A DNA stretch of 64,000 bases, taken from assembly GCA_030650025.1 (NCBI GenBank), contig JAUSEN010000025.1, forward strand, positions 601 to 64,600, read 5' to 3'. The notes under the pieces are model-generated. The model did not search any database. It was not told where the DNA came from and was given only the letters and a program-made list of their open reading frames with translations. The DNA is from Candidatus Magasanikiibacteriota bacterium. Its GTDB lineage: Bacteria; Patescibacteriota; Patescibacteriia; Magasanikbacterales; GWA2-37-8. A program made the translations under genes and the position numbers. This document shows, in pieces, positions 13,100 to 39,516 of this stretch (position 1 is its first letter; each line of letters starts with the position of its first letter).

Positions 13100-13114
13100 T
13101 TTATTTATTTTACC

Positions 13115-13194
13115 TGTCATCTTGAGCGAAGCGAAAGATCTAAGCGTATATTTGGCAAACTTGACTTAGATTCTTCGCTCTGCTCAGAATGACA
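13115..13194. repeat. Intergenic MITE-like long hairpin element, copy B.
   Basis: Same arm sequences as 4301-4380 with a different loop. It overlaps the most upstream ATG of the VirB6-like ORF. Confidence 0.7.
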
Positions 13195-13218: not shown

Positions 13219-16200
13219 TTATTCAGTAGGTTTAACGTATAATTTGCCTCCAAAATTGACCCAAGGCAAGGGCGAGTTCGGGTCAGCGCATTGATCGGGC
13301 CCAGCGCCGTCATTACCATCGTAACAGCCACTGCCTACGTTTCCTAAACAAGAACCGGCACACCAGCCCCAATTGTCTTTAACTTGCACCCGGGGTTTAT
13401 AAATACAACAGCCTTCGGGGAAGCGTTCGGGCAAACGGCCGCAGTCACTCGAGCTCGGGTGATAGGTTTTGTCGCCTTTAACACACTGGTAGTCGTGTTC
13501 GAATTGGAAATAAGAGTTGTCGCAAGAACGGTTTACAATCAAGCCAAATTCCGCCGCGGAATTTTCGGGCACGCATTGGCTAACCGTGGGGCAGCCCGGG
13601 TTTTGGTACGAGCAAGATAACTTGGTTGTGCCATCAGCCGCCAATACCGGAGCGCCGCTCGGAGTTTTACAGTTGCCGGGAGTAACTTTATCCGGAGCCG
13701 AGCAAATTGTCTGCACTTGTCCGCGCTGGTTGCGGAAAGCGCCTAGCCCAGGGTCGGTTACCATACCATCGCCCCAGTCCACCTTAATTTGGCGAATAGG
13801 CATTTGTTCTTTATACGCGGCCGCGTAAAAACGGGTGGTGGCGCGCTCGGCATAGTCGCCAAACAGATAGATGTCGCCGGTTGAGGTGTTGTTCACGCTA
13901 ATCGCGCCCGGGGCGCCTTCAATACAGTTGGCATCTTGGTCTGCCTCGGCGCAATTGACGGCGTAGACAGTGGGGGCTTTCGGGGTAACGCCATTGAGGC
14001 CGGTTCTAGTTATATTAAAGGTTGGCGCCAGGCCGCTAGTTAAATATTGCGAACCATTAAAATCATAAATATCAAAGACTTTGGCAAATAACTGAATTAC
14101 GTTGGTTCGGCCGGTAATGCCAACACCTACTTTGGCAAAATCTATGGCATTAGTGATTAAGTTTACGTCCTTATCGCCATCGTAACCAGGGCAAGCCCCG
14201 CCCAAACCGTCTTTACAACTATAGGGGTAGCCGGGCGTTAGCAAAACCGACTTATTTTTATCACCCGTATCTCTGTATACTTCGCCAAGCTTATCGTAAT
14301 TACACTCCCCGACATTAGGCGGGCATTGGTATTTGCTGGCGTCTTTTGGATCTTTACCAATTTTGTCGGCTTTAGTAAATAAAATAGTTTCGAATTTGTC
14401 AGCCGGGTTGCCAGTCGCGAGCGCGCCGAACGGCTCGGGTTTGGTGGTGTAATTGACCAGTGTCAGGTTGCCGTTGTTGTCCTTATCATATTTTAAATTA
14501 GAAACAACATATTGGCTTTTATTGGCATTGCCAATCCACAAACGGTCTGTCCAAGCTACCGCGCTAATCGGGTCAGTATAATTTACTTTGGCGCTAACCA
14601 CCGATTTACACCATTCTTTAAATTTGAAAAAGACGTGATATCCTACGCTACCACTACCAGGAGAATCGTCGCAATATGCTGTGTAATAACCCAAAAATGC
14701 GTGTGTAGCCGGGTCGAACCTAACTCTGATAGCATGCCAATTGCCTCCACACCTGCCTGGCAAAGAGTTACATTCTTGGTGGGGGGCATCATCTTTAGCG
14801 CCACTGGGGCAAATCTGGCTTCCCTTAACCCTGGTTGACCAAATACCAATATTTTCGGAGCCATTATTTTCTTGGCTCGGCAATTCCACGCCGCTCGCAT
14901 ACATCTTGCTCCCAAAAATATTTCCGCTAAAAGCGTTACAGCTGTTTTTATTCTGGCCATTGTAGGCATAACAAAAATCACCAACTGTCCCTGGCGTGTT
15001 AGGCTGGGCATCGTTAGGAATGCCATCGCTAGGGCTAGTAAAAATATATGGGAAAGTGCTACCCTCATGCTTGTGAGCACTGCTATAAGCAATAACCCAG
15101 TCAGTGCCTCTGCCCATATATTTACCAGCCACAGCCACACCTGGCCGGTAAGCATTATCATTAGCCCCGCCACCTTGAATTGTGATTGCTCGATAATAAG
15201 ACTGGTAGACAGTTTTATTTTTATTAGGGTCATTAGGCCAGATGCTAAAGGTAGCATCGTTGGCTGGGTCTTGGCTGTCTCCGCTCGTCACTTTAAAATC
15301 AATTCTTTCCACGTCTTCCATAATAACACCAATTTCATTGTCAACCGGTTGTACGAAAGAACGTGAAAATTGCCCAAGATTGTCGTTCTCCCAGGGGGCA
15401 GTACCACGACTGGAAAGAATTCCTAACCCAATTCCCATTCTACGAGTATAAAAATTCTTCGCCGAAGTACCATCGGGATCAGCTGGAGTCTCCCAGTCTA
15501 CCACTTTGCCATTGCCCGCTCCGTTTGAAGCTAAGCAGTACAGCGGAGCACCTTGATAACCCGCGTCAGTATGCTGATTATTAACATCCGCCGCGCCGTT
15601 GAGAGTATCCACCGGCCACCAGGTGAGGCAGGGGTGTTCGCTTGGGAGGCCGTTCAGGGGACGGGAAATATCCGGCTCCAGGCAATAGCCACTCCAGCCC
15701 AGGTGCGGGTCAACGCGTTTAAGTTTTTGGCAAGCGCCATCAATTGATGATATGTCACCTTTGTCTTTCTCGAAAATATTATCTTTATTAATTTCTATCT
15801 TATGACAGTCCCTGTCGGCTTCGCAATCCATACCATCGCGATCCCCTCCTTGGCAGAGGCCTTTGGGCACTTCGCCCGGTTGATTGCCCAAAATCCCCAA
15901 TGGAATTTTGGAGTTTTTGGAATTAATGACAATGGGAACTTGGTTAGGCCGCGCGTAGTTCCAAAATTTATTGATAAAATCGCCATACTGGGCGCGAGTA
16001 TAGTTACATTCGCAGAGGTTGGCAGTGAGCTTCCAGGAGGAGGGCAAATTGCCTTCGTTGCAGTAATTGACGCCTTTAAATAAGTTGGTGGCTTTGGCAA
16101 TGCTCGGCTGGTTCGGGAAGGGCGAGTCCTGCTCGGGGTACGCGCGGCAAATTTGCGAGGGCGCGCTATCCATGAGGCGCACATCGGGGAGGCCCCCGGG

Positions 16201-19200
16201 GGTCGCGACGCATACGCCGCTCCTAGCGCAAACGCCAGGTTGCGCGGCAGTGCCGCACGGCGCGAGCTCCTTGCAAGGAACATTAAATTCGCCCCCTAAA
16301 TCGCACTCCGAGAGATCACTCGGCACGCAGGCTGAATCCGTGGAAGTGGGGCTTTTGTTAACGCAAATCTTGTCGCCGCCAATGCTTTTATCGCCGCCGC
16401 AGGCGACTACTTTTACTAAACGCCAGGCCGGAGTCGAGGTGGGGTTATTAATATTGATTTGGCGCAAGGTTTCAATCGGGAGAGTGTTCAGGAGGGAATA
16501 ACCCGAATAATCCTGGCCAGTCCAGCCGACGTTACGCGTGACATAGACAGATTCGTCTAAGACACGAGGAGGAGGGTCGTTAATTTTGTAGGTAACCCAA
16601 TGGGCGCAAGTAGCATAAGAGCCTTTGGCCTTGCTGGGCAGAGCCCGGTCGCAACGAGCCACCTGGTCGCAGACTTTCTTAAAATTGCCAGTATTCTGGT
16701 CGCGCACGGTGTGCGAAGAGACGCACTGGATCCACTCGCCGCACATCCGGTCCTGTTTTACTTGAATAATAATGTTAGAATCATTGCCATTCGGGTCCGA
16801 AGCGGCCGGGACTAAATTGCCGTCCTTGTTTTCGCTATTTTTGTAACTTAAATCCGTGGACCAATATTTGTTGGGATTATCGGTTTTTTCAAACAGCGCG
16901 CAACCATATTTTTGGCTGGCCTGCCCCGCGCAATCGCCAGCCGAGATTTTTTTGTTATTTATAAAATAATGGCGCTCGTCATTGTCCGCGTGATCCACAA
17001 ACTCGGTGCACTGGTTCCACTCGTCCGGGCAAGAACCGACAAAATTTTGATAAGTTGACGTAGCGCCATAGGACCACAGGCCGTAAACCCCGTCCGCGTC
17101 AAGATATGATGGGTAGCACGGGACATTGGCCGCGAGGTCGCAAGAGTCGCCACCGCCGCAATCCGTATTCTTAACACAAAGGGCAGAGCTTTTTTTACAG
17201 TAACCAACTCCCTCTCTAAACCAGCCGCTATTTTTGGAAACAATATTTCTGACTTTCACATCCACATCCGCGCGATATTGGCAAAGGCCCTGCCCGCTTT
17301 GGAGAGGGTCTTTAAAGTAAAAGTCACCGCCGGCATTATCTTTATATTGGCCGCAAAAGAGCGCTTCCGCGTAGCAGAGCTGGTCGTTATACTCGGCCGG
17401 ACTATTTTTAATGGTGGTGGTAACATATTCAGGGCCGGTCGGAGTGTCTTTTAGTTTGCCGGCGTACATACAGCCTAAATCCGGCTCGGTGCAAGTGGCC
17501 CCTTTATTGGCTACTAAAAAGATGGGCGCGGTGGAAGAAGTGTCCGCGGGGACAGTGACAGTCGAAGTCACAACCGTGCCGCCGCCGTTTTGAATCGCGA
17601 TTAGAGAGAATTCCGCGGGAACGGTTTTAATATAACAACCGCTCCGCCCCACTTCGATCTGGCACTTGGGGTTTTTCTGGCCGAGTTTAAGATCTAGTGT
17701 TTTCCATGCCCCAGATAACCCGGGCATCCAAATATTATAATAGCGTTCGCCAGTGTCGCCCAAGGTATTAAAGCTGTCAATGACGCCAACACAGCCAATG
17801 GCATTTTCTCGGCACAAAAAGCTAAAGCCAGTGAGATTCACGCGTTGACCAACCGGGTTAGAATAAGCGCGGCAACCAAGCGCCGCCCCTGGCAAGTTAT
17901 CGTCCGTATTATCGTCGCAAGCAGAGCTGACTTTAAGGGTATTTTTCTTGATAAATATATTTTCAGCCACTTCCACTAACCTAACATTGTCTAAATATAT
18001 ACTGCCATTTTGGGTGAGAGCAAAGGCTAATCTAAAATTAGTGGTAGCAGGGTTATTGCCATTTGGAGTTAATTCCACCGGCCCTAAACTATAGTAATTC
18101 CAGGTGTCGCCAAGGCTAAGCGTGCCAAAAGCTTTGGTATATAAGCCATCGGCGGAATCCAGGCGTATATCAGTGGCAACGCCGCTGCCCTTGGCCCAAA
18201 AGCTAAGAATATAGGTATTGCCAGAAGCCAGTTCTAATTTTTTAAATACCTGGCCGGCTCCGGAATACCCGAGAGATTGGCCGGCGGGCTGGGTGGACTC
18301 GCGGGTGATGCTTATAGAACCACCCAAAATTGCCCAATCTTTTAAGAGAGCGGGCGTATTGGTGGCAATGTCGCTAAGTTCAAAAGTGTTTGGAAAATCA
18401 GCCATTACTTTGACATTATTGCCGGCGTTGCCTTTGTACTCGCGACAGCTATTGGCAGTCTCGGCGCAAGCGCGGCTCTCGCCAGCGCTATTCTTAGCGT
18501 CTTTAGGCAAACCATAGTAGTAGCACTGGCCATCTTTATATTCGCCGCTTTGGAAGCAGACCTGGCAGATATTGTCGGTTTTATTCCAAAACCCGTGGTA
18601 GATGCCGTTCTCTTCAGTGCAAGTGTTCTCGTTAATAGCGGGCACATTGTAAAGCTCGGTATTATTTAGCCGGTAACGCTGGCAAGAATCCGTAACCGGA
18701 ATAAGTCTAGAAAGCAAGCGATAAAAAACCCGGCCGCGGTCGTCGTTAAACTGGCGGCAATCCGGGTCAAAGGTTGGATTTTGGCTTTGCGCTTTATAAA
18801 CTGCTTCAGAGCAGAGGTCGGCAAACTTCTGGCGATCCGCCAAAGTGCCATATAAATATTTAGGCGCGCCAATTTGATTATTAGGGTTATTGATAATTGG
18901 TAAATTGTCTTCAACAGCAATGTTCTCTACCAAGCGATAGGTTTTAAGCTGAATACCGGTAAGAGCCGTGCTTTCGTAAGTAATGAAATTTTTGCCAGTA
19001 TTGACGCTGGAAGGAACGCAGGCGCGCAGATGCGTAAAATAATCCACCTGTTCCACTTGGTCTCCGGTAATATTGCCCACATTGGTAAACCCGGTACAGC
19101 CGGCGTCAGCAGGGGCGCAGGCTTCGCCGGAAGAGGGAATAATATAAGCCACATCTTGCCCGCCAGAGAAATTGCTGGGCATTTCGCGGTAACTGTCATA

Positions 19201-21456
19201 GCCCACACAAGAGGCATCGCATAAATTATCCACGCCGTATTTGCCGGGGATCGGGCGGCGATCGCCTGAAAGCGGAGTATACAAGTTACACCCCACTTCG
19301 CTCTTAATACAGGCTGATGAATACTGGCTGCAAGCGGGAGAAGCCGGCAATTGACGCAATTCTACCGGGGTATCGGGCCACTGGACGCCAAGCGCAACTT
19401 TATCAGCATCATAACAGCCCAAATACTCGGGGGCTTTTTTGAGAAACAGAGTAATGTCGGTCGAGGAAGCGTAAGCAAAGGCGCTGCAACCTTGTGAGTT
19501 AGGGGAACAACTTTCGGAAACAGATTTGTTAAAATAAATGCCATTATTAACACCCGCGTTCTGGCCCGGGCCCTGCCAACCACCATTTAGTTTGGTTAAG
19601 CTAAAATAATTACAACCCACATTTTGCGCCGAGCACCAGCCAGTGTCGAGCGTGCGGTAGATGTAAGAAGCGCTTTGATTCGTTTCGGAATTATTAAAAG
19701 TACGGCAGGTGCGAAATTCGGCCGGGCACTCGTCCGCGTCAAACTTCCAGGTATTTTTTTCGCGCGTGCAATAAGCGTAAGAGACGCACTGGCCTTTGAT
19801 GTCAAAAGCCACACAAGTAGAAAGGTCGGCACAGTCTTGGTTCCTCTGCGGGATGCCCTCGCTCAAGGGCTGTGGCCCCCACACCGAAGCATTACAACGA
19901 GTAGGTTCGAGTTTCAGCACCCAATTGGGGTCAATGAGATGGCAAAAAGGCTTGTTAACCGGGTCATAAATAATATTACCGGCTTCATCGCGCAGGCAGT
20001 CGTTGAAACCTTTAACCACTTGTTCCAAAGTCCAAGGGCGGTCCGGGTCGCTAAGCTTGGCCGCGATTTCAAATCCCAGTGGCAAAACGCGGATTTGGCG
20101 CAAGACCCGGATGTTGGCGTAGCAATAACTTTTTTCGAAACATTTTTTATCCATGTTTTCAGCCACGCGAGTCGGGGGCAGAAGTTGCTTGCTACCATCC
20201 AAAGCCCCGCTCTTCAAGGCGGCCGCGATAGTGGTGGGGCTGCCAACTTCGGTTTGTTTTAAAGCTTCCACTAATTTTTGATCAGCCCGGCAATTGTAAG
20301 TATTCTGGAGGCCATCGGGGCAAGCGGCGAGTTCGCCGGTTAAATCATAGTTATCAATCGGTTTAATTAGCGCGGTTTGCAAAATGCTTTCAAAATAAAT
20401 TTGCGCTTGGCGGCGCCCGCCAACAACACCCGTGCTCTCGTAGGCAGCCGCCCCGCCGCCGCCTAAACAAGCGGAAGAACCATCTTTACAGCCAATACCA
20501 AAAGGCAAAACACCTTGTTCTTGGTAATTTTTGACCATGGTACTAACCAACGTATTTACGAAAATGCTTAAAATAGTTGGCAAAACCTTAATATCCCCTT
20601 TGGAGAGAAGCGCGGCGATTTGCTGTTCGTCTTTTTCTTGTTGGGTGGAAGGCGTGTTAGACTCTAACTCTTTTTTAACATTACCAGCCGGGAGTTTAAT
20701 TTGGTCGGAAATTATACCAGCCACTGGCTTGGCCCCTCCACCTTCGAGGCGTTGCAATTCTTCGCCCGCCATTTTAACAGCCACGGTTTGATCTATAAGT
20801 TGTTTAGTGCCCAAATAAATTCCAAAATCAGTTTGGTCGGCGCTGCTCATGGCCGAGTTAAACTGATCCTGAATGTCATTGCCAAAACCGCTCCAGCGGC
20901 TTTTGTGGGCTTCGGCATCGCCCCAGTTTTTGGTAAATTCGGTAAAACTACAAGACGGCTTTTGTTGGCCAGCGTCCCCGCCACGCCCGCCAAAACCGCC
21001 AAACCCAGGCATCCGGAGACCCACCTTCATGGCGAGGTCTACTTTAATATCAGGAATTTTGCAAAGATTAAGGCCGATGCCAGTGCGCTTGTCGGCCAAG
21101 GATTCTATGGCCGCGCCAAAAGCTTCATTACCGACATCGGACATGTACGACCCGAAACCTTTGTTAAACGCCAGCGCGCCTTGGCCTTTGCCGCCGGAGG
21201 CGAGCCAGACAGCGGCGTCATAAGACACTTTGCGGATAACATATGTAACCAAACGAATGACGGCATTCAAAACCGCGGTTTTTAAAATTTCCCAAATCTG
21301 CAATAAAATATCTTTGATTTGCCCGGGGATATCAGTAGCGATAGTCGCAATTACTTGAGCATGAGCAGGAGGAGGAAAGCTAAACGAGCCTAGCAAAGCG
21401 CTAAGGGATACTAAGACCAGAAGAACGCTGGCGCTTAATTTCCTAAATCGCGACAT
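13219..21456 (-). CDS. Giant (2745 aa) secreted Cys-rich surface protein with a jelly-roll/CBM-like region. Putative adhesin associated with the T4SS-like locus.
   Basis: Signal peptide (MSRFRKLSASVLLVLVSLSALLG...AHA), hundreds of Cys in paired patterns, Gly/Asn/Thr-rich sequence and an uninterrupted 8.2-kb frame. The start is 4 nt downstream of the preceding gene. Confidence 0.85.
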   Translation of the reverse strand: MSRFRKLSASVLLVLVSLSALLGSFSFPPPAHAQVIATIATDIPGQIKDILLQIWEILKTAVLNAVIRLVTYVIRKVSYDAAVWLASGGKGQGALAFNKGFGSYMSDVGNEAFGAAIESLADKRTGIGLNLCKIPDIKVDLAMKVGLRMPGFGGFGGRGGDAGQQKPSCSFTEFTKNWGDAEAHKSRWSGFGNDIQDQFNSAMSSADQTDFGIYLGTKQLIDQTVAVKMAGEELQRLEGGGAKPVAGIISDQIKLPAGNVKKELESNTPSTQQEKDEQQIAALLSKGDIKVLPTILSIFVNTLVSTMVKNYQEQGVLPFGIGCKDGSSACLGGGGAAAYESTGVVGGRRQAQIYFESILQTALIKPIDNYDLTGELAACPDGLQNTYNCRADQKLVEALKQTEVGSPTTIAAALKSGALDGSKQLLPPTRVAENMDKKCFEKSYCYANIRVLRQIRVLPLGFEIAAKLSDPDRPWTLEQVVKGFNDCLRDEAGNIIYDPVNKPFCHLIDPNWVLKLEPTRCNASVWGPQPLSEGIPQRNQDCADLSTCVAFDIKGQCVSYAYCTREKNTWKFDADECPAEFRTCRTFNNSETNQSASYIYRTLDTGWCSAQNVGCNYFSLTKLNGGWQGPGQNAGVNNGIYFNKSVSESCSPNSQGCSAFAYASSTDITLFLKKAPEYLGCYDADKVALGVQWPDTPVELRQLPASPACSQYSSACIKSEVGCNLYTPLSGDRRPIPGKYGVDNLCDASCVGYDSYREMPSNFSGGQDVAYIIPSSGEACAPADAGCTGFTNVGNITGDQVEQVDYFTHLRACVPSSVNTGKNFITYESTALTGIQLKTYRLVENIAVEDNLPIINNPNNQIGAPKYLYGTLADRQKFADLCSEAVYKAQSQNPTFDPDCRQFNDDRGRVFYRLLSRLIPVTDSCQRYRLNNTELYNVPAINENTCTEENGIYHGFWNKTDNICQVCFQSGEYKDGQCYYYGLPKDAKNSAGESRACAETANSCREYKGNAGNNVKVMADFPNTFELSDIATNTPALLKDWAILGGSISITRESTQPAGQSLGYSGAGQVFKKLELASGNTYILSFWAKGSGVATDIRLDSADGLYTKAFGTLSLGDTWNYYSLGPVELTPNGNNPATTNFRLAFALTQNGSIYLDNVRLVEVAENIFIKKNTLKVSSACDDNTDDNLPGAALGCRAYSNPVGQRVNLTGFSFLCRENAIGCVGVIDSFNTLGDTGERYYNIWMPGLSGAWKTLDLKLGQKNPKCQIEVGRSGCYIKTVPAEFSLIAIQNGGGTVVTSTVTVPADTSSTAPIFLVANKGATCTEPDLGCMYAGKLKDTPTGPEYVTTTIKNSPAEYNDQLCYAEALFCGQYKDNAGGDFYFKDPLQSGQGLCQYRADVDVKVRNIVSKNSGWFREGVGYCKKSSALCVKNTDCGGGDSCDLAANVPCYPSYLDADGVYGLWSYGATSTYQNFVGSCPDEWNQCTEFVDHADNDERHYFINNKKISAGDCAGQASQKYGCALFEKTDNPNKYWSTDLSYKNSENKDGNLVPAASDPNGNDSNIIIQVKQDRMCGEWIQCVSSHTVRDQNTGNFKKVCDQVARCDRALPSKAKGSYATCAHWVTYKINDPPPRVLDESVYVTRNVGWTGQDYSGYSLLNTLPIETLRQININNPTSTPAWRLVKVVACGGDKSIGGDKICVNKSPTSTDSACVPSDLSECDLGGEFNVPCKELAPCGTAAQPGVCARSGVCVATPGGLPDVRLMDSAPSQICRAYPEQDSPFPNQPSIAKATNLFKGVNYCNEGNLPSSWKLTANLCECNYTRAQYGDFINKFWNYARPNQVPIVINSKNSKIPLGILGNQPGEVPKGLCQGGDRDGMDCEADRDCHKIEINKDNIFEKDKGDISSIDGACQKLKRVDPHLGWSGYCLEPDISRPLNGLPSEHPCLTWWPVDTLNGAADVNNQHTDAGYQGAPLYCLASNGAGNGKVVDWETPADPDGTSAKNFYTRRMGIGLGILSSRGTAPWENDNLGQFSRSFVQPVDNEIGVIMEDVERIDFKVTSGDSQDPANDATFSIWPNDPNKNKTVYQSYYRAITIQGGGANDNAYRPGVAVAGKYMGRGTDWVIAYSSAHKHEGSTFPYIFTSPSDGIPNDAQPNTPGTVGDFCYAYNGQNKNSCNAFSGNIFGSKMYASGVELPSQENNGSENIGIWSTRVKGSQICPSGAKDDAPHQECNSLPGRCGGNWHAIRVRFDPATHAFLGYYTAYCDDSPGSGSVGYHVFFKFKEWCKSVVSAKVNYTDPISAVAWTDRLWIGNANKSQYVVSNLKYDKDNNGNLTLVNYTTKPEPFGALATGNPADKFETILFTKADKIGKDPKDASKYQCPPNVGECNYDKLGEVYRDTGDKNKSVLLTPGYPYSCKDGLGGACPGYDGDKDVNLITNAIDFAKVGVGITGRTNVIQLFAKVFDIYDFNGSQYLTSGLAPTFNITRTGLNGVTPKAPTVYAVNCAEADQDANCIEGAPGAISVNNTSTGDIYLFGDYAERATTRFYAAAYKEQMPIRQIKVDWGDGMVTDPGLGAFRNQRGQVQTICSAPDKVTPGNCKTPSGAPVLAADGTTKLSCSYQNPGCPTVSQCVPENSAAEFGLIVNRSCDNSYFQFEHDYQCVKGDKTYHPSSSDCGRLPERFPEGCCIYKPRVQVKDNWGWCAGSCLGNVGSGCYDGNDGAGPDQCADPNSPLPWVNFGGKLYVKPTE

Positions 21457-22221: not shown

Positions 22222-23178
22222 CTACAAAGAAGCACTTAAATCCAGCCAATTGGGCAAACTTAACTCTTGCGCGCGAGCGGTTTTGGTAAGGCCAAATGAC
22301 TCTAACAGAGCCATTATTTTGCCACTATCCCCTGCCGGAATTAGAGATTTTAAATTTTTTAACAAAACCTTACGTTTACTAGAAAATCCGAGCCGCGCCA
22401 GTTTAAATAATTTAGATATTTCTTGAGAAGAGAGGCCGGGGGTTTTGGGTGTTAGCTTAATAACAGCCGAATCCACCCTCGGCACTGGCCAGAAAGACTC
22501 GCGAGGAACAGGAAAAACGATGGCTGGCTTTGAGTAAAGCTGAACAGACAAGGCCAAAAGGGACATCGCACCTGGCAGAGCGCAAATTCTCTCCGCCACT
22601 TCCCGCTGGATCATCAAAATCATTTCGCTTGGAGGATTACTAGATTCTAAAAACATTTTTATAAGCGGTGAGGTAATTTGGTACGGGATATTGGCGATGA
22701 CTTTGTATGGACTCACCACCTCTGCTTCCAGCAAAACCTTCCCCTGCCCTGTCCTCGACGTGTATCCTCCCCCCTGCCCCCTCCATTGCGATGGAGGGGG
22801 AGTGGCAATTCCCCTCCCCTTCGCAAAGGGGAGGGCGAGGGTGGGGTTAAAGCGATTCAAAACATTACCCCAAATAATTTCTAAATTATTTATTTTTTTT
22901 TCCTGAATATTATTTTCCCAATAATCTTGTAACTTTTTTTCAATCTCAAAACCAAACACTCTCCCAGCTTGCTCCGCGAGCGAGAGGGTGAGAGTGCCAA
23001 ACCCGGGCCCGACTTCTACCACCGTATCTTGTTTACTTAAATTCGCCACGGCCAAAATTTTATTAATTACCTCGGCGTCTATCAAAAAATTTTGGCCGTA
23101 TTGCTTACTCGGCCGCAGGCCATATTTTTGGCAAAGATGCTTTAGGTGGTCGGGGTTAAAGAGTTTAGTATTATCCAT
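22222..23178 (-). CDS. rsmA: 16S rRNA (adenine1518/1519-N6)-dimethyltransferase RsmA/KsgA carrying an in-frame GC-rich insertion.
   Basis: The N-terminus (QNFLIDAEVINKI..VVEVGPGFGTLT) is typical of KsgA. An inserted segment LALPFAKGRGIATPPPSQWRGQGGGY is encoded by the repeat element. Confidence 0.9.
   Translation of the reverse strand: MDNTKLFNPDHLKHLCQKYGLRPSKQYGQNFLIDAEVINKILAVANLSKQDTVVEVGPGFGTLTLSLAEQAGRVFGFEIEKKLQDYWENNIQEKKINNLEIIWGNVLNRFNPTLALPFAKGRGIATPPPSQWRGQGGGYTSRTGQGKVLLEAEVVSPYKVIANIPYQITSPLIKMFLESSNPPSEMILMIQREVAERICALPGAMSLLALSVQLYSKPAIVFPVPRESFWPVPRVDSAVIKLTPKTPGLSSQEISKLFKLARLGFSSKRKVLLKNLKSLIPAGDSGKIMALLESFGLTKTARAQELSLPNWLDLSASL
22766..22848. mobile_element. Intragenic GC-rich two-hairpin palindromic element, copy 1 (in rsmA).
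   Basis: Module B (CCCTCCATTGCGATGGAGGG) plus module A (CCCCTCCCCTTCGCAAAGGGGAGGG) with a shared ACCCCACCCTCGCCC flank. It is in-frame with no stop codons. Confidence 0.75.
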
Positions 23179-23180
23179 AA

Positions 23181-24278
23181 TTATTTTTTGATAATCACAC
23201 CGATGTCCGCATTAACTTCAACCAAATCTCCTGTTTTTAATAATTTAGTAACGTCTCTAACGCCGATAATGCAGGGAGTCCCCAGTTCACGGGCTACTAT
23301 GGCCGCGTGGCTCGTGAGGCCGCCTGTTTCGGTAACTAAGGCCGCGGCCAGCTTTATGGCAGGCAGGTACTCGACGGCAGTATACGGTGCTACTAAAATA
23401 TCACCTCGCTTCATTCGCCGTATCGCGGCCGTGCTATTTTTTACAACTATAACTCTCCCCGCCGCTACTCCACGCCGGGCTATTTGCCCCCGCAGTGTAT
23501 TGTTACTATTGCTCACTAAAAGTTCTTTAAATCGGCCGCGCTTTAAAAACTGGAGAGCAGCTTTACCCGCGTATATTTTTAATTTTTTTTCTTCGTAAAA
23601 TAAAATGGTTATTTTTTTACGGGCGTTAATTAGTCGACCAGCTATTTTACCGCGCCTTAGACCCAGAATAATCTCTGGTATGGTTAGATACTCAATATCA
23701 TTGGCACGGAGTCTTAAAATTTTAGCAATGGCTCCAAATAAATTATTACAATTATTCCGGCGACGCGCGAGTAATTTAGAAACATCTTCTTTAATATATG
23801 CGCCAACTTGGATAATTTTATTTAAGTTATTCGTGGGTTTACTATTTATACCACCAACTAACTCACTAAATAAATGCAATAGATTGCTCATGGCGTCTAA
23901 GGGAGCAGCCAGTTCTCGAATTTTGACTAAATCCCTTCCCGCCTCTCTACTGTTACTTTTATTATATTTAACTCGAGCGATTTGATCTAAAAACTTTTTT
24001 AATTTTTTACTTCGTGCCTTATATTCGACGAAAATAATTTTTATCCATGTTTTGCTACGCAATTTATTTTGGTAAACGGATTTTAAATTATTAATATCGT
24101 CTACAAGTCCATATTTTTCTTGCCAGCCATTTTTAATGATTGATAAAATACGGTATTGCGCGCCCACATATTTTTTAAACCACTTAAAAAATAATTCATC
24201 GGCGTAATTAAGGGCAACCAGCGGCGCTAAGTTGTTGCTAAAAAATAATTGGTATTGTTTGCGGCGAAAATTGATCAT
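23181..24278 (-). CDS. PEP-utilising-enzyme mobile-domain protein.
   Basis: C-terminal motif VTETGGLTSHAAIVARELGTPCIIG, typical of the phosphohistidine swivelling domain of PEP synthase/PPDK. Confidence 0.55.
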   Translation of the reverse strand: MINFRRKQYQLFFSNNLAPLVALNYADELFFKWFKKYVGAQYRILSIIKNGWQEKYGLVDDINNLKSVYQNKLRSKTWIKIIFVEYKARSKKLKKFLDQIARVKYNKSNSREAGRDLVKIRELAAPLDAMSNLLHLFSELVGGINSKPTNNLNKIIQVGAYIKEDVSKLLARRRNNCNNLFGAIAKILRLRANDIEYLTIPEIILGLRRGKIAGRLINARKKITILFYEEKKLKIYAGKAALQFLKRGRFKELLVSNSNNTLRGQIARRGVAAGRVIVVKNSTAAIRRMKRGDILVAPYTAVEYLPAIKLAAALVTETGGLTSHAAIVARELGTPCIIGVRDVTKLLKTGDLVEVNADIGVIIKK

Positions 24279-24290
24279 ACTTTTAATAAA

Positions 24291-25427
24291 TTATTCTGGT
24301 AGCAAACCAGCACTCGTATACCGATTACTCGCATTCCACATCAGCCACCCCGCGTCAGTGTATTTTTCAATCTCGTCTATTTGCGCGCGAATTTTGACTG
24401 CATCATAAACCGCCCCTAAATTAAAGGCCTGAATCCAAGGCCGCAGTTTGGCCCGCTGGCCAGTAAATTTAGGCATTCCGAGTTTAAGACCATGGGCAAA
24501 TACTTCACCCGGGTGCGCGGCAGGATTTTGGAAACCTAAATGACCGCGCGGGTAATGCGAAGGGTACATCATGGGAGAAATATAATCAGTGGAGCTCACG
24601 GCGTCCACAATACGCTGACCGATATTAAGATCAAAATTATTTTTCGCTTCCATGGTTAAACCAAACATGTCGAGCGAGAGCCACACCGGCTCGTTAGCCA
24701 ATTCGCTACTTAACGTTTGATAAAATTCCCGCATGATTTGGGATTTAGCGCGGCCACCCATGTTATAAACCACGCGGCTCATATCGCCGTCCGAAGGGAA
24801 GCGCACATAATCAAAATTTATTTCGTCAAACCCAAAATCCGCCACTTCCCTGGCAATATCAAAATTATATTTCCAGACTTCGCGGCGTGTCGGATCCACC
24901 CAAGAGAGGCCGCGATGGTCCCGCCACACCAAATTATCTTTATCTTTTATGGCCCAACCAGGCTTTTTGGCGGCCAAAACCGGATCCTGAAAAACAGTTT
25001 GCCGAGCAATTACGTAAATATTTTTGTCATGCAGTTTTTTTATGATGCCGGGCAAATCTGGTAATAAATTTCTCGATAAACCATTTTTCTTGGCCAGAGG
25101 CACGCGGCTTTTATACAAAATATATCCCGTGTAATCTTTGATGTCTATGATCACGGCATTTAATTCTGTCTCATCGATTAATTTTATTATCTCATCGAGT
25201 TTTTTGGGGTCGCTCGCGGAATAAGCGGTAAGATACAAGCCTTTGGCAGTTTGGGCCGGCGGCTTTGCCTTGGGTTTGTTCTCGAGTAAAAAGGCCAAGG
25301 GGCTAAATACGCTCGGCGTGGCATAACTCGTTTCACTGTTCGCGGCTTGCCACTGAAATAAAATAGCGCCCGCGCCTAAAAGCGCGGCTAAGACGGAAAT
25401 TAAAATGTAATTACGCGAGGTCAACAT
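24291..25427 (-). CDS. Putative TIM-barrel glycoside-hydrolase-like protein (GHL/DUF4015-like) with an N-terminal TM anchor.
   Basis: 378-aa ORF. The segment WVDPTRREVWKYNFDIAREVADFGFDEINFDYVRFP resembles the DUF4015 putative glycosyl hydrolase family. Recalled similarity only. Confidence 0.4.
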   Translation of the reverse strand: MLTSRNYILISVLAALLGAGAILFQWQAANSETSYATPSVFSPLAFLLENKPKAKPPAQTAKGLYLTAYSASDPKKLDEIIKLIDETELNAVIIDIKDYTGYILYKSRVPLAKKNGLSRNLLPDLPGIIKKLHDKNIYVIARQTVFQDPVLAAKKPGWAIKDKDNLVWRDHRGLSWVDPTRREVWKYNFDIAREVADFGFDEINFDYVRFPSDGDMSRVVYNMGGRAKSQIMREFYQTLSSELANEPVWLSLDMFGLTMEAKNNFDLNIGQRIVDAVSSTDYISPMMYPSHYPRGHLGFQNPAAHPGEVFAHGLKLGMPKFTGQRAKLRPWIQAFNLGAVYDAVKIRAQIDEIEKYTDAGWLMWNASNRYTSAGLLPE

Positions 25428-26535
25428 ATACTTCGCCTTGGCGCAAAATTTTTATTTTGCTATTTAAGACGCTAACTAATGTACTCGGTTTATTTTTTGT
25501 CAAGATGCCATAATCGAGCATAATATCCGGCTGATATTCTTGATTTTTAAATTGCTCGGCGAGTATCTTAGCGTCATAAATCTCACCGGCATCCGATAAA
25601 TTAGCCGATGTGGCCACGAGAGGCCGACCAATTTTTTCGGTAATTGATTTTAGAAGAGGGTGCGTGGTAACGCGCAGGGCGATGGTGCCAGCCTGCGATA
25701 TCACACCTCTCGCGATGCCACTGCCAATCCTCCCCCCCGCCCCCTCCATTGCTATGGAGGGGGGGACGCGATCTCTGTTTTTAAAAACTTCATCTATAAT
25801 TGAATCTAAAACAGCATCTAAATTATTAAAGACCTGTAAATTATCGAATCTAATAACTTTATAGCCAGAATCTACCAACCACTTAGTGCGTAGTCTGTCC
25901 TTTTCTACTTGATCTTTATCCACATAATGCACATCACCATCTAATTCGATAACTAGTTTTGTGTCGGGTTGAAAAAAATCAACTATGTAAGAGCCTACCC
26001 CATGCTGACGTCTAAATCTGATACCGTTCAATCGCTTATCCCGTAAATGATTCCAAAGAATTAACTCGGCTTTCGTTTGATTTTTTCTAAGTTCCCGGCG
26101 TCTTACTAAGCTAGATATGTAACCAGCTATTCGCTCAAATCGAAATTCGCGTCCCCTCCCCTTAGCAAAGGGGAGGGTAGGGTGGGGTCTGGTATCGCCA
26201 TCGGCCAATCCACCCCCTACCCCCTCCATTGCTATGGAGGAGGGGTGACGATACTCCCCCACCACCGTCAAAGCCCCGGGCCAATATTTTTTAGAAATTT
26301 CTTCTAACTGCTTGCTCCACGCTAAATATTTTTTTGCTTCGGCAATGCTCGGCACGACCACTAGGAGCGGCTTCTTAAAATCCCGGCCTTTAATTTTAAA
26401 AATTTTGTCTACGGCTTGTTGGTTAGTGGCATCACACCCGAGACCATACGACGTTTCGGTGGGAAAAACAATAATCTTGCCATTCAGTATATCGACGACG
26501 AGCTCGGCTAAATTACACTCGGTTAAAATTTTCAT
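25411..26535 (-). CDS. tsaC: L-threonylcarbamoyladenylate synthase TsaC/YrdC interrupted in-frame by a DUF559 endonuclease-like domain flanked by palindromic repeat modules.
   Basis: YrdC N-terminal part (FPTETSYGLGCDATN...) and C-terminal part (TIALRVTTHPLL...PLVATSANLS...). Between them lies the DUF559 motif set (TKAELILWNHL...FRRQHGVGSYIVDFF...VIELDGDVH...VIRF). Confidence 0.85.
   Translation of the reverse strand: MKILTECNLAELVVDILNGKIIVFPTETSYGLGCDATNQQAVDKIFKIKGRDFKKPLLVVVPSIAEAKKYLAWSKQLEEISKKYWPGALTVVGEYRHPSSIAMEGVGGGLADGDTRPHPTLPFAKGRGREFRFERIAGYISSLVRRRELRKNQTKAELILWNHLRDKRLNGIRFRRQHGVGSYIVDFFQPDTKLVIELDGDVHYVDKDQVEKDRLRTKWLVDSGYKVIRFDNLQVFNNLDAVLDSIIDEVFKNRDRVPPSIAMEGAGGRIGSGIARGVISQAGTIALRVTTHPLLKSITEKIGRPLVATSANLSDAGEIYDAKILAEQFKNQEYQPDIMLDYGILTKNKPSTLVSVLNSKIKILRQGEVYVDLA
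25728..25770. mobile_element. Intragenic palindromic element module B, copy 2b (tsaC, distal flank of the DUF559 insert).
   Basis: CCTCCCCCCCGCCCCCTCCATTGCTATGGAGGGGGGG. It encodes PPSIAMEGAGG in-frame. Confidence 0.7.
25771..26150 (-). other. Embedded DUF559 (Vsr-like / PD-(D/E)xK-fold) endonuclease domain inside tsaC.
   Basis: About 125-aa segment matching the DUF559 consensus (LR..qT.aE..LW..L......FrRQ...g.YivDF......viElDG..H......D..R...L...G..viRf). Confidence 0.7.
26150..26250. mobile_element. Intragenic palindromic element (modules A+B), copy 2a (tsaC, proximal flank of the DUF559 insert).
   Basis: CCCCTCCCCTTAGCAAAGGGGAGGG ... CCCCTCCATTGCTATGGAGGAGGGG. It encodes PSSIAMEGVGGG...LPFAKGRG. 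Confidence 0.75.
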
Positions 26536-26536
26536 A

Positions 26537-26887
26537 CTAAACTTCAACTTCTTTCCAAACAATCTCAATGGCATTAAAATATTCTTTGGTAAATTTTACG
26601 AGCACTTCTGGATCAAATGGCTTGCAAGTATAACAATCGACAGTAAACAGTGGCGGATTTGTTGGATAACTATAAAAATGACTACCGGAAGATTTCCAAT
26701 GAATCCAACCACCATAACCCATGTCATGAGCGCTATAGGCAATGGGCTCAGATAGTACTTCCATTTTGCAAACTTCAGCAATCGCGAGTAAATATTTTTT
26801 AATTTCCTCTGGTTCAACAATCTTCTGTGTGGTACCCTCAATAATTACTCGCTGTCTAATTAAATTTGGCGCTAAATTTTTCCACAT
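26537..26887 (-). CDS. S-adenosylmethionine decarboxylase-like (pyruvoyl-dependent, SpeH/SpeD small type) protein.
   Basis: Motifs KSSGSHFYSYP...FTVDCYTCKPFD resemble the ESHxxxHTxPE...VDxFTCG signature of AdoMetDC proenzymes. Confidence 0.45.
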   Translation of the reverse strand: MWKNLAPNLIRQRVIIEGTTQKIVEPEEIKKYLLAIAEVCKMEVLSEPIAYSAHDMGYGGWIHWKSSGSHFYSYPTNPPLFTVDCYTCKPFDPEVLVKFTKEYFNAIEIVWKEVEV

Positions 26888-26900
26888 ATATTAAAATTAC

Positions 26901-27890
26901 TTACACCAACAAATTCGTAATCAATTTTATCATCATGTCTTTTTCCTTCGGGTTACTTTCGGCAACCAACAACGCTAATGCCACCAGTGTAGTATCGGAA
27001 ATTTTGCGCTCACCGGTTTTGCGCCACAAATATTTATTGCGTTCCAAAAAATACACAAACAAAAGCGCGCCGGTGCGTTTATTGCCATCGGCAAAAGGGT
27101 GATCTTTAATTACGAGGTACAGCAAATTGGCAGCTTTTTCTTCGACCGAATTATAAAGCTCGACCCCGCCAAATGTTTGGTAGAGCGCACCTAAAATACT
27201 TTTAAACTTATCGCCGTATTCTTGGCCAAACAAGTCGCCGGCCTCGCCTTTTTCTATCAGCTTCAATTTTGTTTCGTCAACAAGCTTGCGAGCGATATCA
27301 TAATTGAGTATGATGCTCGGCTTTTTATTTTTCTTGAGTGCGAGCGTACCTTTGTCATATTGGTAAAACAACGACAAAGACGTGGCGTAATCTTCTATCA
27401 CACTCAACAATTCTTGAGTCTGCCCCGCAAGCTCTGGGCGAGCGGCTTTCTCGCGCATAAACACAACAGCTTTTTGAAGGTCATTTAGCCGCGTCTGTTG
27501 TTCTTGCAGGCGCTTTTGGTTAATGGTGTAACCTTGTACAAGATGGCTACGCAAAACTTTGGTGGCCCAAATACGGAATTGGCTGGCCTGTTTGGAATTT
27601 ACGCGGTAGCCAACAGAAAGAATGGCATCGAGATTATATGCCAATACTTCATAGACCTTGCCGTCTTCGGCAGTATGTGCAAATTTTGCACATACTGAAT
27701 TTTCTCTTAGCTCAGCAGAAAGAAAAATATTTTTTAAGTGTTTGCCAACAACAGATCTATCGACTCCAAAAACATCGCCGATTTGCTTTTGCGTAGCCCA
27801 AATTGTTTCCTGCTTAAAATCGCCCTTAAACTCAATCGCTCCAGTCTTAGTCTGGTACACAACAACTTCTTTTTGTTTAATTTTTTTCAT
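26901..27890 (-). CDS. Fic/DOC family protein fused to an N-terminal RhuM-like domain.
   Basis: Fic motif HPFADGNKRTGAL. The N-terminus (VVVYQTKTGAIEF..ETIWATQKQIGDVFGVDRSVVGKHLKNIF) is RhuM-like. Confidence 0.7.
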   Translation of the reverse strand: MKKIKQKEVVVYQTKTGAIEFKGDFKQETIWATQKQIGDVFGVDRSVVGKHLKNIFLSAELRENSVCAKFAHTAEDGKVYEVLAYNLDAILSVGYRVNSKQASQFRIWATKVLRSHLVQGYTINQKRLQEQQTRLNDLQKAVVFMREKAARPELAGQTQELLSVIEDYATSLSLFYQYDKGTLALKKNKKPSIILNYDIARKLVDETKLKLIEKGEAGDLFGQEYGDKFKSILGALYQTFGGVELYNSVEEKAANLLYLVIKDHPFADGNKRTGALLFVYFLERNKYLWRKTGERKISDTTLVALALLVAESNPKEKDMMIKLITNLLV

Positions 27891-38475: not shown

Positions 38476-39516
38476 TTATAAAATTATGTCAATATCGCCT
38501 AAAATATCGGTACGTAAGATATTCGCCCCAGCACGCTCTAAATGCTTGATAACTCTGGGGCTCGGGTGGCCGAATTTATTTTTCTGGCCAGATGAAATTA
38601 TGGCTGTTCTAGGATTAACTTTGCTTAAAAAATCCTCGCCGCTCGAGCTGTTGCTCCCGTGATGCCCGACTTTTAAGATGTCAGATTTTAGAGTAGGGCA
38701 ACCAGCACTAGACCCCACCCTCGCCCTCCCCTTTGCTAAGGGGAGGGGAATCGTTGGTGTAGTTACTGATGGCTCTCCCCTCCTTAGCAAAGGAGGGGTT
38801 GGGGGAGGTTTGGCTACACTGCAATATTTCTCTATCAACACTTGCTCGAGCGGTTCTTCGGCGTCGCCGGTAAATAAAAAAGTTTTTCCACTCGGCGCCG
38901 TTAATTTAAACACTATTGAATAATTATTACTTTCGGCGTCCGCGAGCGGCAAGCCCAAATCTTCACCCGGCGACAAAAATTCGAGCGTACTGCTCGCGAT
39001 TTCCAGTTTAGCGAATCCATTGACAACCACCTGGCGAGCCCGACTCGCTTCTACAGTGGCATTAAACTCTCGCCAGTATGGATTATATTCTTTGGATTGG
39101 CCATTCAAAATAATAGTGCCCACCTGGTAGCGGCGCAAAACTTCAACGCAACCGCCATAATGGTCTAGATCCGGATGGGTGACTAATAAATAATCAATTT
39201 TTTTGTTAAACATGGGCAAGGCACGGCCTAGTTTAAACAAAATTGTTTTATCCGGGCCACAATCAACTAACATCTTTTCATCATTGCCAAAATTTATTAA
39301 ACTGCTGTCGCCTTGGCCGACATCAAAAAAAGTAACGCGAAATTTTTTATCTTGCTCGTTCTCTTTCTCTAGATAGCTAACAAACAAAAAAATTGTGCTG
39401 GACAACACGCAAATAATTATAAATACCCAAAATAAATTTTTGTTTTTCTGCATAAGCATAGACAGTTTTGTCATTTCGACCGAGCCCGCAGGGCGAGCGG
39501 AGAAATCTCTGTCCAA
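38476..39516 (-). CDS. ComEC-type metallo-beta-lactamase domain protein (membrane-anchored), carrying an in-frame repeat element.
   Basis: N-terminal TM helix and MBL motifs (LLVTHPDLDHYGG; KVGHHGS). Confidence 0.6.
   Translation of the reverse strand: MDRDFSARPAGSVEMTKLSMLMQKNKNLFWVFIIICVLSSTIFLFVSYLEKENEQDKKFRVTFFDVGQGDSSLINFGNDEKMLVDCGPDKTILFKLGRALPMFNKKIDYLLVTHPDLDHYGGCVEVLRRYQVGTIILNGQSKEYNPYWREFNATVEASRARQVVVNGFAKLEIASSTLEFLSPGEDLGLPLADAESNNYSIVFKLTAPSGKTFLFTGDAEEPLEQVLIEKYCSVAKPPPTPPLLRRGEPSVTTPTIPLPLAKGRARVGSSAGCPTLKSDILKVGHHGSNSSSGEDFLSKVNPRTAIISSGQKNKFGHPSPRVIKHLERAGANILRTDILGDIDIIL
38712..38812. mobile_element. Intragenic palindromic element (two A modules), copy 3.
   Basis: GACCCCACCCTCGCCCTCCCCTTTGCTAAGGGGAGGGGAATCG is 41/41 identical to the truB copy. 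A second A' module is CTCCCCTCCTTAGCAAAGGAGGGG. Confidence 0.75.

Follow-up and report, generated by a model that had tools for sequence, protein, structure and literature searches.

A DUF559 nuclease domain bracketed by hairpin repeats and carried in frame within tsaC: a probable resident copy of a selfish cassette

Analysis of tsaC, the gene for L-threonylcarbamoyladenylate synthase, in a Candidatus Magasanikiibacteriota bacterium (GenBank assembly GCA_030650025.1) revealed an in-frame insert that encodes a DUF559 nuclease domain and is bracketed by palindromic hairpin repeats. The gene lies in a stretch of 64,000 nucleotides (contig JAUSEN010000025.1, positions 601 to 64,600), which was analyzed as a whole and is referred to as the window. 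Five kinds of described systems resemble this insert. EDxHD homing endonucleases act as dimers, cleave pseudopalindromic DNA, and propagate through break repair; they interrupt conserved genes, and hairpins have been noted upstream of their open reading frames (ORFs) (PMC3239194, PMC2677866). The ShiLan-type insertion in a phage methylase shows intein-like evolution, is stop-free in the host frame, lacks a splicing domain, and is predicted to form a loop that protrudes from the host protein (PMC11855218). [quoted passage not shown] In REPIN-RAYT systems, an enzyme gene is flanked by hairpin repeats dispersed in the genome, and two-hairpin units stand in inverted orientation (PMC3116915, PMC3337134). 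Inteins with homing endonucleases are in-frame occupants of conserved sites in essential genes, with a patchy distribution and a cycle of gain, decay, and loss.

The tsaC insert shares with the EDxHD enzymes (I-Bth0305I; "fractured genes") the nuclease fold and conserved acidic and His residues. The known enzymes, however, are about 260 to 300 aa long with N-terminal NUMOD DNA-binding domains, are mostly phage-borne, and are encoded by free-standing ORFs that reside in group I introns or lie between the two halves of a split intein, where the host is restored by splicing, whereas the tsaC nuclease has about 125 aa, is bacterial and chromosomal, is translated within the host protein, and is bracketed by hairpin repeats. 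In the ShiLan insertion the HNH nuclease is out of frame; the DUF559 domain belongs to another nuclease family, lies in the host frame as a folded domain of the fusion, occurs in bacterial hosts, and has hairpin modules at the insert flanks. The repeats of the window behave like RPEs, with six genes entered in 64 kb. RPEs carry no gene, and their mobilizing enzyme is unknown, whereas one of the window elements carries a nuclease ORF; lineage and sequences differ as well. RAYTs are Y1 (HUH) transposases of the IS200/IS605 type and REPINs are extragenic, in contrast to the PD-(D/E)xK/Vsr-fold nuclease and the intragenic elements of the window. Unlike inteins, the insert has no Hint domain, no splice-junction residues, and nothing that indicates removal from the protein. 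The insert is probably the resident copy of a selfish, hairpin-bounded nuclease cassette, that is, a DUF559 gene of about 0.4 kb between homopyrimidine/homopurine hairpins. It combines features of these known kinds and is apparently one member of a widespread, unnamed class of selfish element.

The mechanical ORF (25411-26574, minus strand) comprises 387 aa. Homologues begin at MKILTEC (M14), and the true start is likely M14 at 26535, giving a tsaC of 374 aa (25411-26535, minus strand) that matches the NCBI protein P0001. The Pfam profile Sua5_yciO_yrdC (PF01300; E 3.8e-45, 154 bits, cut-off 25.1) matched in two stretches on either side of the insert, and the NCBIfam profile TIGR00057 (TC-AMP synthase; 138.5 bits, cut-off 123.2) was likewise split in two. 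The N-terminal half of TsaC (aa 14-108; 26251-26535, minus strand) ends with ...LTVVGEY at nt 26251. According to profile matches, alignment, and model, the C-terminal half (aa 287-387; 25411-25716, minus strand) restarts at IARGVISQAGTIALRV at nt 25716. The junctions read GEY/RHPSS and RIGSG/IARG. An earlier note on this DNA, made from the letters alone, had already seen tsaC as split by an in-frame insert, which it placed at 25728-26250; measured against the loop of 4-5 aa in insert-free TsaC, the whole insert occupies 25717-26250 (178 aa). The K-x-R and S-x-N motifs of the TsaC/YrdC family are its catalytic active-site motifs. Both are intact here, as KGR in the N-terminal and TSAN in the C-terminal half, and nearly invariant across the alignment. 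The frame is open for 387 codons through host and insert, and no second tsaC was found in the window.

The earlier note had allowed for an assembly chimera. A Logan contig from run SRR13727527 is 100% identical to window positions 22839-27696 and spans both junctions; since this independent assembly agrees across both of them, the junctions are not mis-assemblies. Its view that the insert persists without intein splicing was also borne out. Pfam gave four families for the ORF, none of them a Hint or intein domain, and no intein-type residues were found at the insert ends; an intein was therefore ruled out. In 25000-27000 no Rfam intron or ribozyme scored above threshold, the only matches being sub-threshold miRNA-like hairpins in the region of the modules A and B2 described below. 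A self-splicing group I/II intron or ribozyme was ruled out on this result and on the frame being open throughout. No recognized transposase (DDE, HUH, serine or tyrosine recombinase) was found in the cassette, which matched only DUF559 and MTES_1575.

The nuclease domain spans 25768-26145 (minus strand; Pfam match 25789-26103). PF04480 (DUF559) matched aa 158-262 with E 1.1e-33 and 115.8 bits (cut-off 20.6), and the match covers profile positions 6-107 of 109, so the domain is complete, as had been predicted. It has about 125 aa and no additional domain. All 20 clade-invariant residues are present in the insert (including D56, E67, D69, D71, H73, and D83 in insert-core numbering); none of these 20, which include the catalytic acidic and His residues, varies among 21 diverged sequences. 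The best solved relative both by sequence (E 3e-17) and by fold (Foldseek template modeling score [TM] 0.85) is 3HRL, with 37% identity. This stand-alone DUF559 protein of unknown function (NGO0050) comes from N. gonorrhoeae, and no published tie of it to repeats or mobility was found. Foldseek also matched the catalytic domain of I-Bth0305I (3R3P; TM 0.75, E 7e-4) and, weakly, 1VSR (TM 0.50, E 0.97). The description of the domain as Vsr-like holds for the fold but not for the sequence family: no Vsr profile was among the Pfam and NCBIfam matches at E <= 0.1.

An AlphaFold2 (AF2) model of the fusion was built with 33 aligned sequences. The predicted local distance difference test (pLDDT) was about 95 in both TsaC halves and 87-95 in DUF559, whereas aa 116-145 and 270-283 scored below 50; these low-scoring stretches are exactly those translated from modules B2/A and B1. 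In a Foldseek search, the host part of the model matched Sua5/TsaC/YrdC structures, including 6f89 and 1hru. In the model, the nuclease thus forms a separately folded domain that two flexible, Pro/Gly-rich linkers tether to a loop of TsaC. Alignment and model together show a folded, catalytically conserved Vsr-fold nuclease translated within TsaC. Whether it has kept its activity is less certain, with the balance tipping toward a nuclease that is still active.

Two kinds of palindromic module flank the domain, B on both sides and A on one side, as the earlier note had described. Module B has the sequence CCCCCTCCATTGCTATGGAGG(G/A)GG (25740-25763 and 26220-26243) and module A the sequence CCCCTCCCCTTAGCAAAGGGGAGGG (26153-26177). 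The window contains 12 and 10 strand-matches to B and A, respectively, where 0 were expected from shuffled sequence. B1 (25726-25772) consists of a C-rich tail (25726-25739), a hairpin (25740-25763), and the linker-like GGACGCGAT, and it encodes VPPSIAMEGAGGRI in disordered linker 2. Module A (26150-26189) comprises a hairpin (26153-26177) and a G-rich tail (26178-26189) and encodes PHPTLPFAKGRG in linker 1. A 17-nt spacer (26190-26206), which on reading the sequence resembles the linker of the B-A elements described below, separates it from B2 (26207-26250; C-rich tail 26207-26219, hairpin 26220-26243), which encodes HPSSIAMEGVGGG, a part of disordered linker 1. The module-encoded peptide, PSSIAMEG or PPSIAMEG, is present on either side of the nuclease. 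B1 and B2 had been taken for inverted terminal repeats. They do match in inverted orientation (24 nt, 88%), but only because B itself is nearly palindromic, but the flanks as such form a 40-nt direct repeat with 85% identity and a start-to-start spacing of 480 nt, or 160 codons. An argument that the unit from B1 to A is an exact multiple of three was dropped, the ends being fuzzy; only the 480-nt spacing is firm. By the orientation of the loops, B1 and A can be read as one B-A unit with the nuclease ORF in its linker, and B2 as an extra half unit. In most of the six frames the modules contain no stop codon, so that they and whatever they bracket can sit in coding DNA.

The same repeat family has invaded other genes, as had been claimed. 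Five further sites were found, all in frame, in housekeeping-type genes named by sequence motifs: an empty, MITE-like B-linker-A element (22763-22847) in a KsgA/RsmA-like gene (22222-23178, minus strand); module A with a related hairpin (38706-38808) in a ComEC/metallo-beta-lactamase-like gene (38476-39516, minus strand); two diverged modules, one B-like and one related (43757-43835), in a LeuRS-like gene (43287-46376, minus strand); a B-linker-A element (48262-48392) in an Fpg/MutM-like gene (47863-48966, minus strand); and a reversed B-A element (52846-52932) in a TruB-like gene (52553-53320, plus strand). The window has seven module sites and, with tsaC, six invaded genes. The modules are thus short, multicopy, palindromic, and in frame in KsgA-, ComEC-, LeuRS-, Fpg-, and TruB-like ORFs, as are MITEs and RPEs; absence from orthologues was judged from TsaC only, by orthologues with the 4-5 aa loop. 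As a single strand, a B-A unit folds into a pair of hairpins, with the C-rich 5' tail and the G-rich 3' tail base-paired to close the structure, and the folding z-scores were -4.1 to -4.8 for two copies and -2.7 for the third. The three empty B-A elements have the orientation of B1...A around DUF559. The ends of the window elements are too ill defined for any target-site duplication to be read.

Further features of the repeats were recorded. A third palindromic module, CCCGCCCGAATCGCTACGCGAAGCGTTGCGGGC (48335-48368), is nested in the G-rich tail of the Fpg-like gene's B-A element, showing that modules nest. A canonical G-quadruplex motif (four runs of G3+, loops of 1-7 nt) is formed by the 3' arm and tail of module A at 26170-26187. 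Four of the five such motifs in the window lie at this part of module A (GGGGAGGG.{1,2}AGGGTGGGG; 22828-22846, 26170-26187, 38713-38731, and 52848-52866), and each A module could form either a hairpin or a G-quadruplex/i-motif. The Logan contig (L001) terminates inside a B-A element, at about 22839, which suggests that the repeats break short-read assemblies. A metagenome scan with module B gave two matches on unrelated high-GC contigs without DUF559 and was uninformative.

The insertion was then compared among homologues. A single-sequence search with the insert gave 294 candidates and listed no TsaC fusion among them, so the full ORF was used instead. This search revealed 26 other TsaC cluster representatives (90% identity clusters) in which PF01300 and PF04480 both match; they are 42-56% identical to the query, about 96% of which is covered, and their source names are Magasanikbacteria, Kaiserbacteria, or none. 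The aligned proteins all have DUF559 in one and the same loop of TsaC, and every copy has the VDF and IE.DGD.H motifs as well as flanking hairpin-like peptides (e.g., PPLFKEGLGEV, SPLLKKRG, and HPALPLKGE). The gene order prfA-tsaC-DUF4015-ksgA is conserved, which indicates that the loci are orthologous. One copy (P0026) is decayed to a domain remnant with an internal deletion. When the host parts of 117 TsaC sequences were placed in a neighbor-joining tree, the 24 carriers lay dispersed over it. The sequences closest to them often lack the insert; some of these have a clean loop of 4-5 aa and others hairpin-only or unrelated repeat fillers, so that tsaC occurs both with and without the insert, one of the distributions that the earlier note had pointed to. 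In six proteins of insert-free lineages (P0029, P0030, P0047, P0050, P0055, and P0090) another filler of about 33-36 aa (LSLRG/A...GIA..P..ARND) lies in the same loop. The loop appears to be a general hot spot for palindromic elements.

Among 147 DUF559 sequences, the 27 TsaC-borne domains form one clade with six free-standing genes. Two of these six were examined and are truly intergenic, neighbors of dprA or of other genes, and their flanks show the same hairpin-plus-tail design; the earlier note had suggested looking for free-standing DUF559 genes of this kind. Host and insert showed a weak positive correlation of divergence with few outliers (P0008/P0020 and P0019/P0023); lateral transfer within the TsaC clade was not accepted as proven from these outliers, the data being too noisy. 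As a whole, the lineage appears to have gained or lost the insert repeatedly, and the domain to have moved at least once between tsaC and an intergenic location. At locus L010 an 88-bp two-hairpin unit stands on each side of DUF559 as a direct repeat, and in the corresponding tsaC loop of L087 the unit is present once and DUF559 is missing. The L087 state is what would be expected of recombination between flanking direct repeats; a landing pad would look the same. Free-standing DUF559 genes lie a few kilobases from tsaC in L086 and L087, and two of those in L087 are paralogous. At L011 (P0009) three full copies of TSPRPILKV and a diverged fourth, TSPRPSLKR, stand between DUF559 and the C-terminal half of TsaC; this array seems to be a tandem repeat, 27 nt in unit length, that arose from a module. 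The records of L007, L008, L010, and L011, with tsaC::DUF559 of the Magasanikbacteria type, are titled "uncultured Gammaproteobacteria bacterium," and P0008 is named Kaiserbacteria and yet has the Magasanikbacteria gene order. These odd names are probably labeling or binning problems.

To examine the flanks of DUF559 genes more widely, one genome per species was scanned with an alignment of the inserts. The scan gave 80 DUF559 loci from about ten phyla (Patescibacteria, Nitrospirota, Nitrospinota, Cyanobacteria, Chloroflexota, Bacteroidota, Ignavibacteriota, deltaproteobacterial metagenome-assembled genomes [MAGs], Zixibacteria, and Gastranaerophilales). Perfect, GC-rich hairpins with a stem of >=8 bp within <=200 bp of the gene were counted. 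Such a hairpin was present upstream of 50 and downstream of 46 of the 80 DUF559 genes, and on both sides of 36. Among 263 control genes of the same loci, 20 had one at the left end, 19 at the right end, and 3 at both (about 7% per side). With a background of 84 hairpins in 525 kb, the binomial p was 1e-51 upstream and 1e-45 downstream. The 5' arm is all-pyrimidine in 89 of the 123 flanking hairpins (types CCCCTCC, CCTCCCC, and CCCTCTCC), and a common layout is hairpin, G-rich tail (e.g., GGTGGGGTAGAG), ORF, C-rich tail (CTCTACCTCCCC), and hairpin. In 61 of 73 loci the similarity of the two flanks as repeats exceeds the 95th percentile of shifted controls, with direct repeats of up to 140 nt in some loci and inverted repeats in others. 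Stem sequences vary by lineage, yet pairing stays perfect, which points to selection on, or renewal of, the palindrome. In viral contigs, a scan with the DUF559 alignment gave 33 weak matches of <=48% identity, several at contig ends; the cassette appears not to be mainly phage-borne. An inversion survey found "DUF559 domain-containing protein" 14-fold enriched among predicted inversion targets (PMC9881135), an enrichment that would suit genes with inverted repeats on both sides.

Other host genes were found both in these loci and by an exhaustive phmmer search, which gave 23,989 representatives at E <= 1e-3. The cassette lies in frame in UvrA (L063), with host domains on both sides, in an HsdM-like methylase (L059), in HsdS (L028), in CobQ (L027), and in MmeI-family proteins (L038, L053, L055, and L068). 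About 18 of the best 150 phmmer matches are embedded in longer proteins, among them three HsdR (between nuclease and motor domains), two type ISP enzymes, a CCA/polyA polymerase, and an M14 peptidase. Some of the hosts (P0241 and P0242 among them) have more than one copy: one ORF has three tandem DUF559 domains, and an Eco57I-like enzyme has two. Restriction-modification proteins (HsdR, HsdM, HsdS, MmeI-like, type ISP, and Eco57I-like) dominate the host list, which matches the enrichment of DUF559 among predicted invertible genes (PMC9881135). In Nitrospirales (L018, L020, L024, L076, L077, and L085), DUF559 lies directly upstream of, and in open frame with, the 3-methyladenine DNA glycosylase Mpg (PF02245); in L020 the frame also extends back 701 codons into a nitroreductase-like gene.

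Signs of mobility were found outside the TsaC clade. The methylase genes of L038 (Phormidium tenue) and L053 (a Pseudanabaena MAG) are about 50-65% identical per 100 nt, whereas identity rises to 98-100% in a tract that starts about 30 nt ahead of the first module and ends about 150 nt past the last one, after which it drops again. This co-conversion-like pattern would be that of a recently transferred cassette with converted flanks. Between L022 and L025, a 589-bp cassette is 98% identical, is inverted relative to its flank, and adjoins 3.9 kb of 77% identity; overall, cassettes of up to 97-98% identity stand in flanks of 77-82%. Acaryochloris has paralogous copies of 88-90% identity with 42-44-bp terminal inverted repeats, in either orientation inside an outer repeat, and no convincing target-site duplication was seen by eye at the ends of these cassettes. 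In Nitrospirales the cassette is no more similar than the flanks, consistent with vertical descent. Taken together, the comparisons show a cassette design conserved across phyla, with many hosts and with patchy distribution, decay, paralogy, inversion, and lateral transfer. In lineages other than that of the window they trace a homing-type life cycle of gain, lateral transfer with co-conversion, inversion, decay, and loss.

These results agree with the selfish cassette that the earlier note had proposed: the distribution is patchy, copies are decayed or paralogous, hosts are unrelated, and cassettes are far more alike than their flanks. That a selfish hairpin-bounded cassette persists here unspliced is likely. 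The cassette would have landed in a permissive surface loop of TsaC and would persist at this place because its total length is a multiple of three and it contains no stop codon. Sequence and model show that TsaC and the nuclease fold as separate domains because the modules are translated into Pro/Gly-rich disordered linkers, and with host and nuclease folding separately in one polypeptide, splicing would not be needed. We infer that the nuclease itself causes the selfish behavior of the cassette, by a homing-like or a RAYT-like mechanism or both. Probably as a dimer, it would cut at or next to the palindromic modules or an empty target, and the break would be repaired by recombination from a cassette-bearing copy, with homology supplied by the repeated modules and adjacent host sequence. 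By analogy with the EDxHD enzymes, cutting by a dimeric DUF559 followed by recombinational repair would be the most economical mechanism and would account for the co-conversion tract. Such break and repair could well be the main route, although we stop short of calling it probable. Empty B-A elements would have arisen from the cassette by deletion, or else they would serve as its landing pads. Recombination between B1 and B2 would remove 480 nt including the cassette and leave an in-frame solo hairpin, a state that relatives show.

Several observations weigh against this interpretation. No cleavage, target site, or target-site duplication has been defined, and the nuclease of the window has no start codon of its own and would have to act within the fusion protein. 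The 64 kb hold only one DUF559 copy, and the three empty B-A elements are uninvaded. Module tails point outward in the window and inward at most other loci. Some "in-frame" cases (the Nitrospirales Mpg genes and L016) may be stop-free intergenic read-through, and the many restriction-modification and repair hosts could indicate a cellular role. The trees are neighbor-joining trees of short alignments. Mean identity is 58% for host and 54% for insert (r = 0.42); because the insert is not more conserved than the host, the copy in the window looks like an old resident, mostly vertically inherited and clade-wide rather than recent in this genome. That this particular tsaC copy is still mobile today is rather doubtful.

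The main rival on mechanism, compatible with homing and not mutually exclusive with it, is a RAYT/REPIN-like role, in which DUF559 mobilizes the hairpin modules, the B-A elements are non-autonomous passengers, and the gene is a mostly vertical, low-copy driver. It is favored by the dispersal in the window of the modules that flank the nuclease gene, by one DUF559 copy against seven module sites in 64 kb, by the strong hairpin association across phyla, and by the largely vertical look of the TsaC-borne copies, and it parallels RAYT genes flanked by repetitive extragenic palindromes (PMC3116915, PMC3337134). Dispersal, however, is not seen at every locus: L003 has only two hairpins in 21 kb, those flanking DUF559, and thus no dispersed family. 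Cyanobacterial cassettes are multicopy and laterally transferred, unlike typical RAYTs, and no strand-transfer activity is known for a lone Vsr-fold nuclease. We regard this role as possible but on the unlikely side.

An immobile fossil would be one ancient tsaC insertion, inherited vertically and lost many times, with a mobility-inactive nuclease and hairpins that landed independently in a loop tolerant of any filler. The similar divergence of host and insert, the near-monophyly of the TsaC inserts, and the unrelated fillers in the same loop elsewhere (LSLRG...ARND-type repeats and hairpin-only inserts) fit this explanation. It would require at least ten independent, often clean, losses, and it sits poorly with the invariance of the 20 residues, with free-standing members at other loci nested in the clade with the same flanks, and with hairpin flanks at DUF559 genes of unrelated phyla and contexts. 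It is improbable. Still less probable is a domesticated fusion, in which DUF559 would have a cellular role, e.g., nucleic-acid binding or repair, in TsaC and in repair and restriction proteins. Long retention with conserved residues, the frequency of DNA enzymes among the hosts (UvrA, Mpg, and HsdR/M/S), and the confidently folded fusion speak for it. Against it, the insert is absent from close relatives and decayed in one copy, the linkers are disordered and repeat-derived, the same cassette occurs in functionally unrelated hosts (CobQ, M14 peptidase, and CCA enzyme) and in tandem triplicate, and cassettes are more alike than their hosts. An artefact or a known intervening element (assembly chimera, pseudogene, intein, or self-splicing intron) can practically be dismissed: GC-rich repeats can break or misjoin assemblies, as the Logan contig end at 22839 recalls, but an independent assembly is identical over both junctions, the architecture recurs in 26 homologues from other samples, the frame stays open over 387 codons, and no Hint/intein family in Pfam or above-threshold intron or ribozyme in Rfam was matched.

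The neighborhood of tsaC was also recorded. Upstream, a 116-aa ORF (26537-26887, minus strand), which has PF02675 (AdoMet_dc) in the matching contig, overlaps the mechanical tsaC start. The next ORF upstream (26901-27890, minus strand; 329 aa) contains HPFADGNKRTG, which we take to resemble a Fic-type motif. Downstream of the tsaC neighborhood lie two giant ORFs (8477-13120, minus strand, 1547 aa; 13219-21456, minus strand, 2745 aa), and the related loci L002-L005 and L086 have giant ORFs at the same position.

In the full-text literature, of which most subscription journals lay outside coverage, no description of a hairpin-bounded DUF559 cassette or of the TsaC insertion was found. Introns and inteins are two means by which nuclease genes can reside in essential genes; the selfish cassette would add a third, in which it brings its own flexible, stop-free linkers and stays in the protein. 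Compact dimeric nucleases that recognize defined palindromes could serve as reagents. For Patescibacteria genomics, the cassette accounts for unusually large "fusion" proteins and for contigs that break at these repeats. A broader reading is offered tentatively: DUF559 may be the nuclease of pan-bacterial mobile elements, each a gene for about 125 aa with homopyrimidine hairpins, that drives its own spread and that of gene-less hairpins. These elements would then be the PD-(D/E)xK counterpart of RAYT/REPIN, and the gene-less hairpins would colonize coding sequence in frame in the manner of RPEs. If this is true, inversion of a cassette could switch host genes on or off, notably those of restriction-modification, because the bounding repeats are invertible and the cassette is stop-free in one orientation only. 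The findings make DUF559 a candidate for the enzyme that spreads small, RPE-like palindromic repeats in bacterial coding sequences, a spread long left without explanation, and they give a testable function to a protein family of unknown function with about 24,000 cluster representatives at 50% identity.

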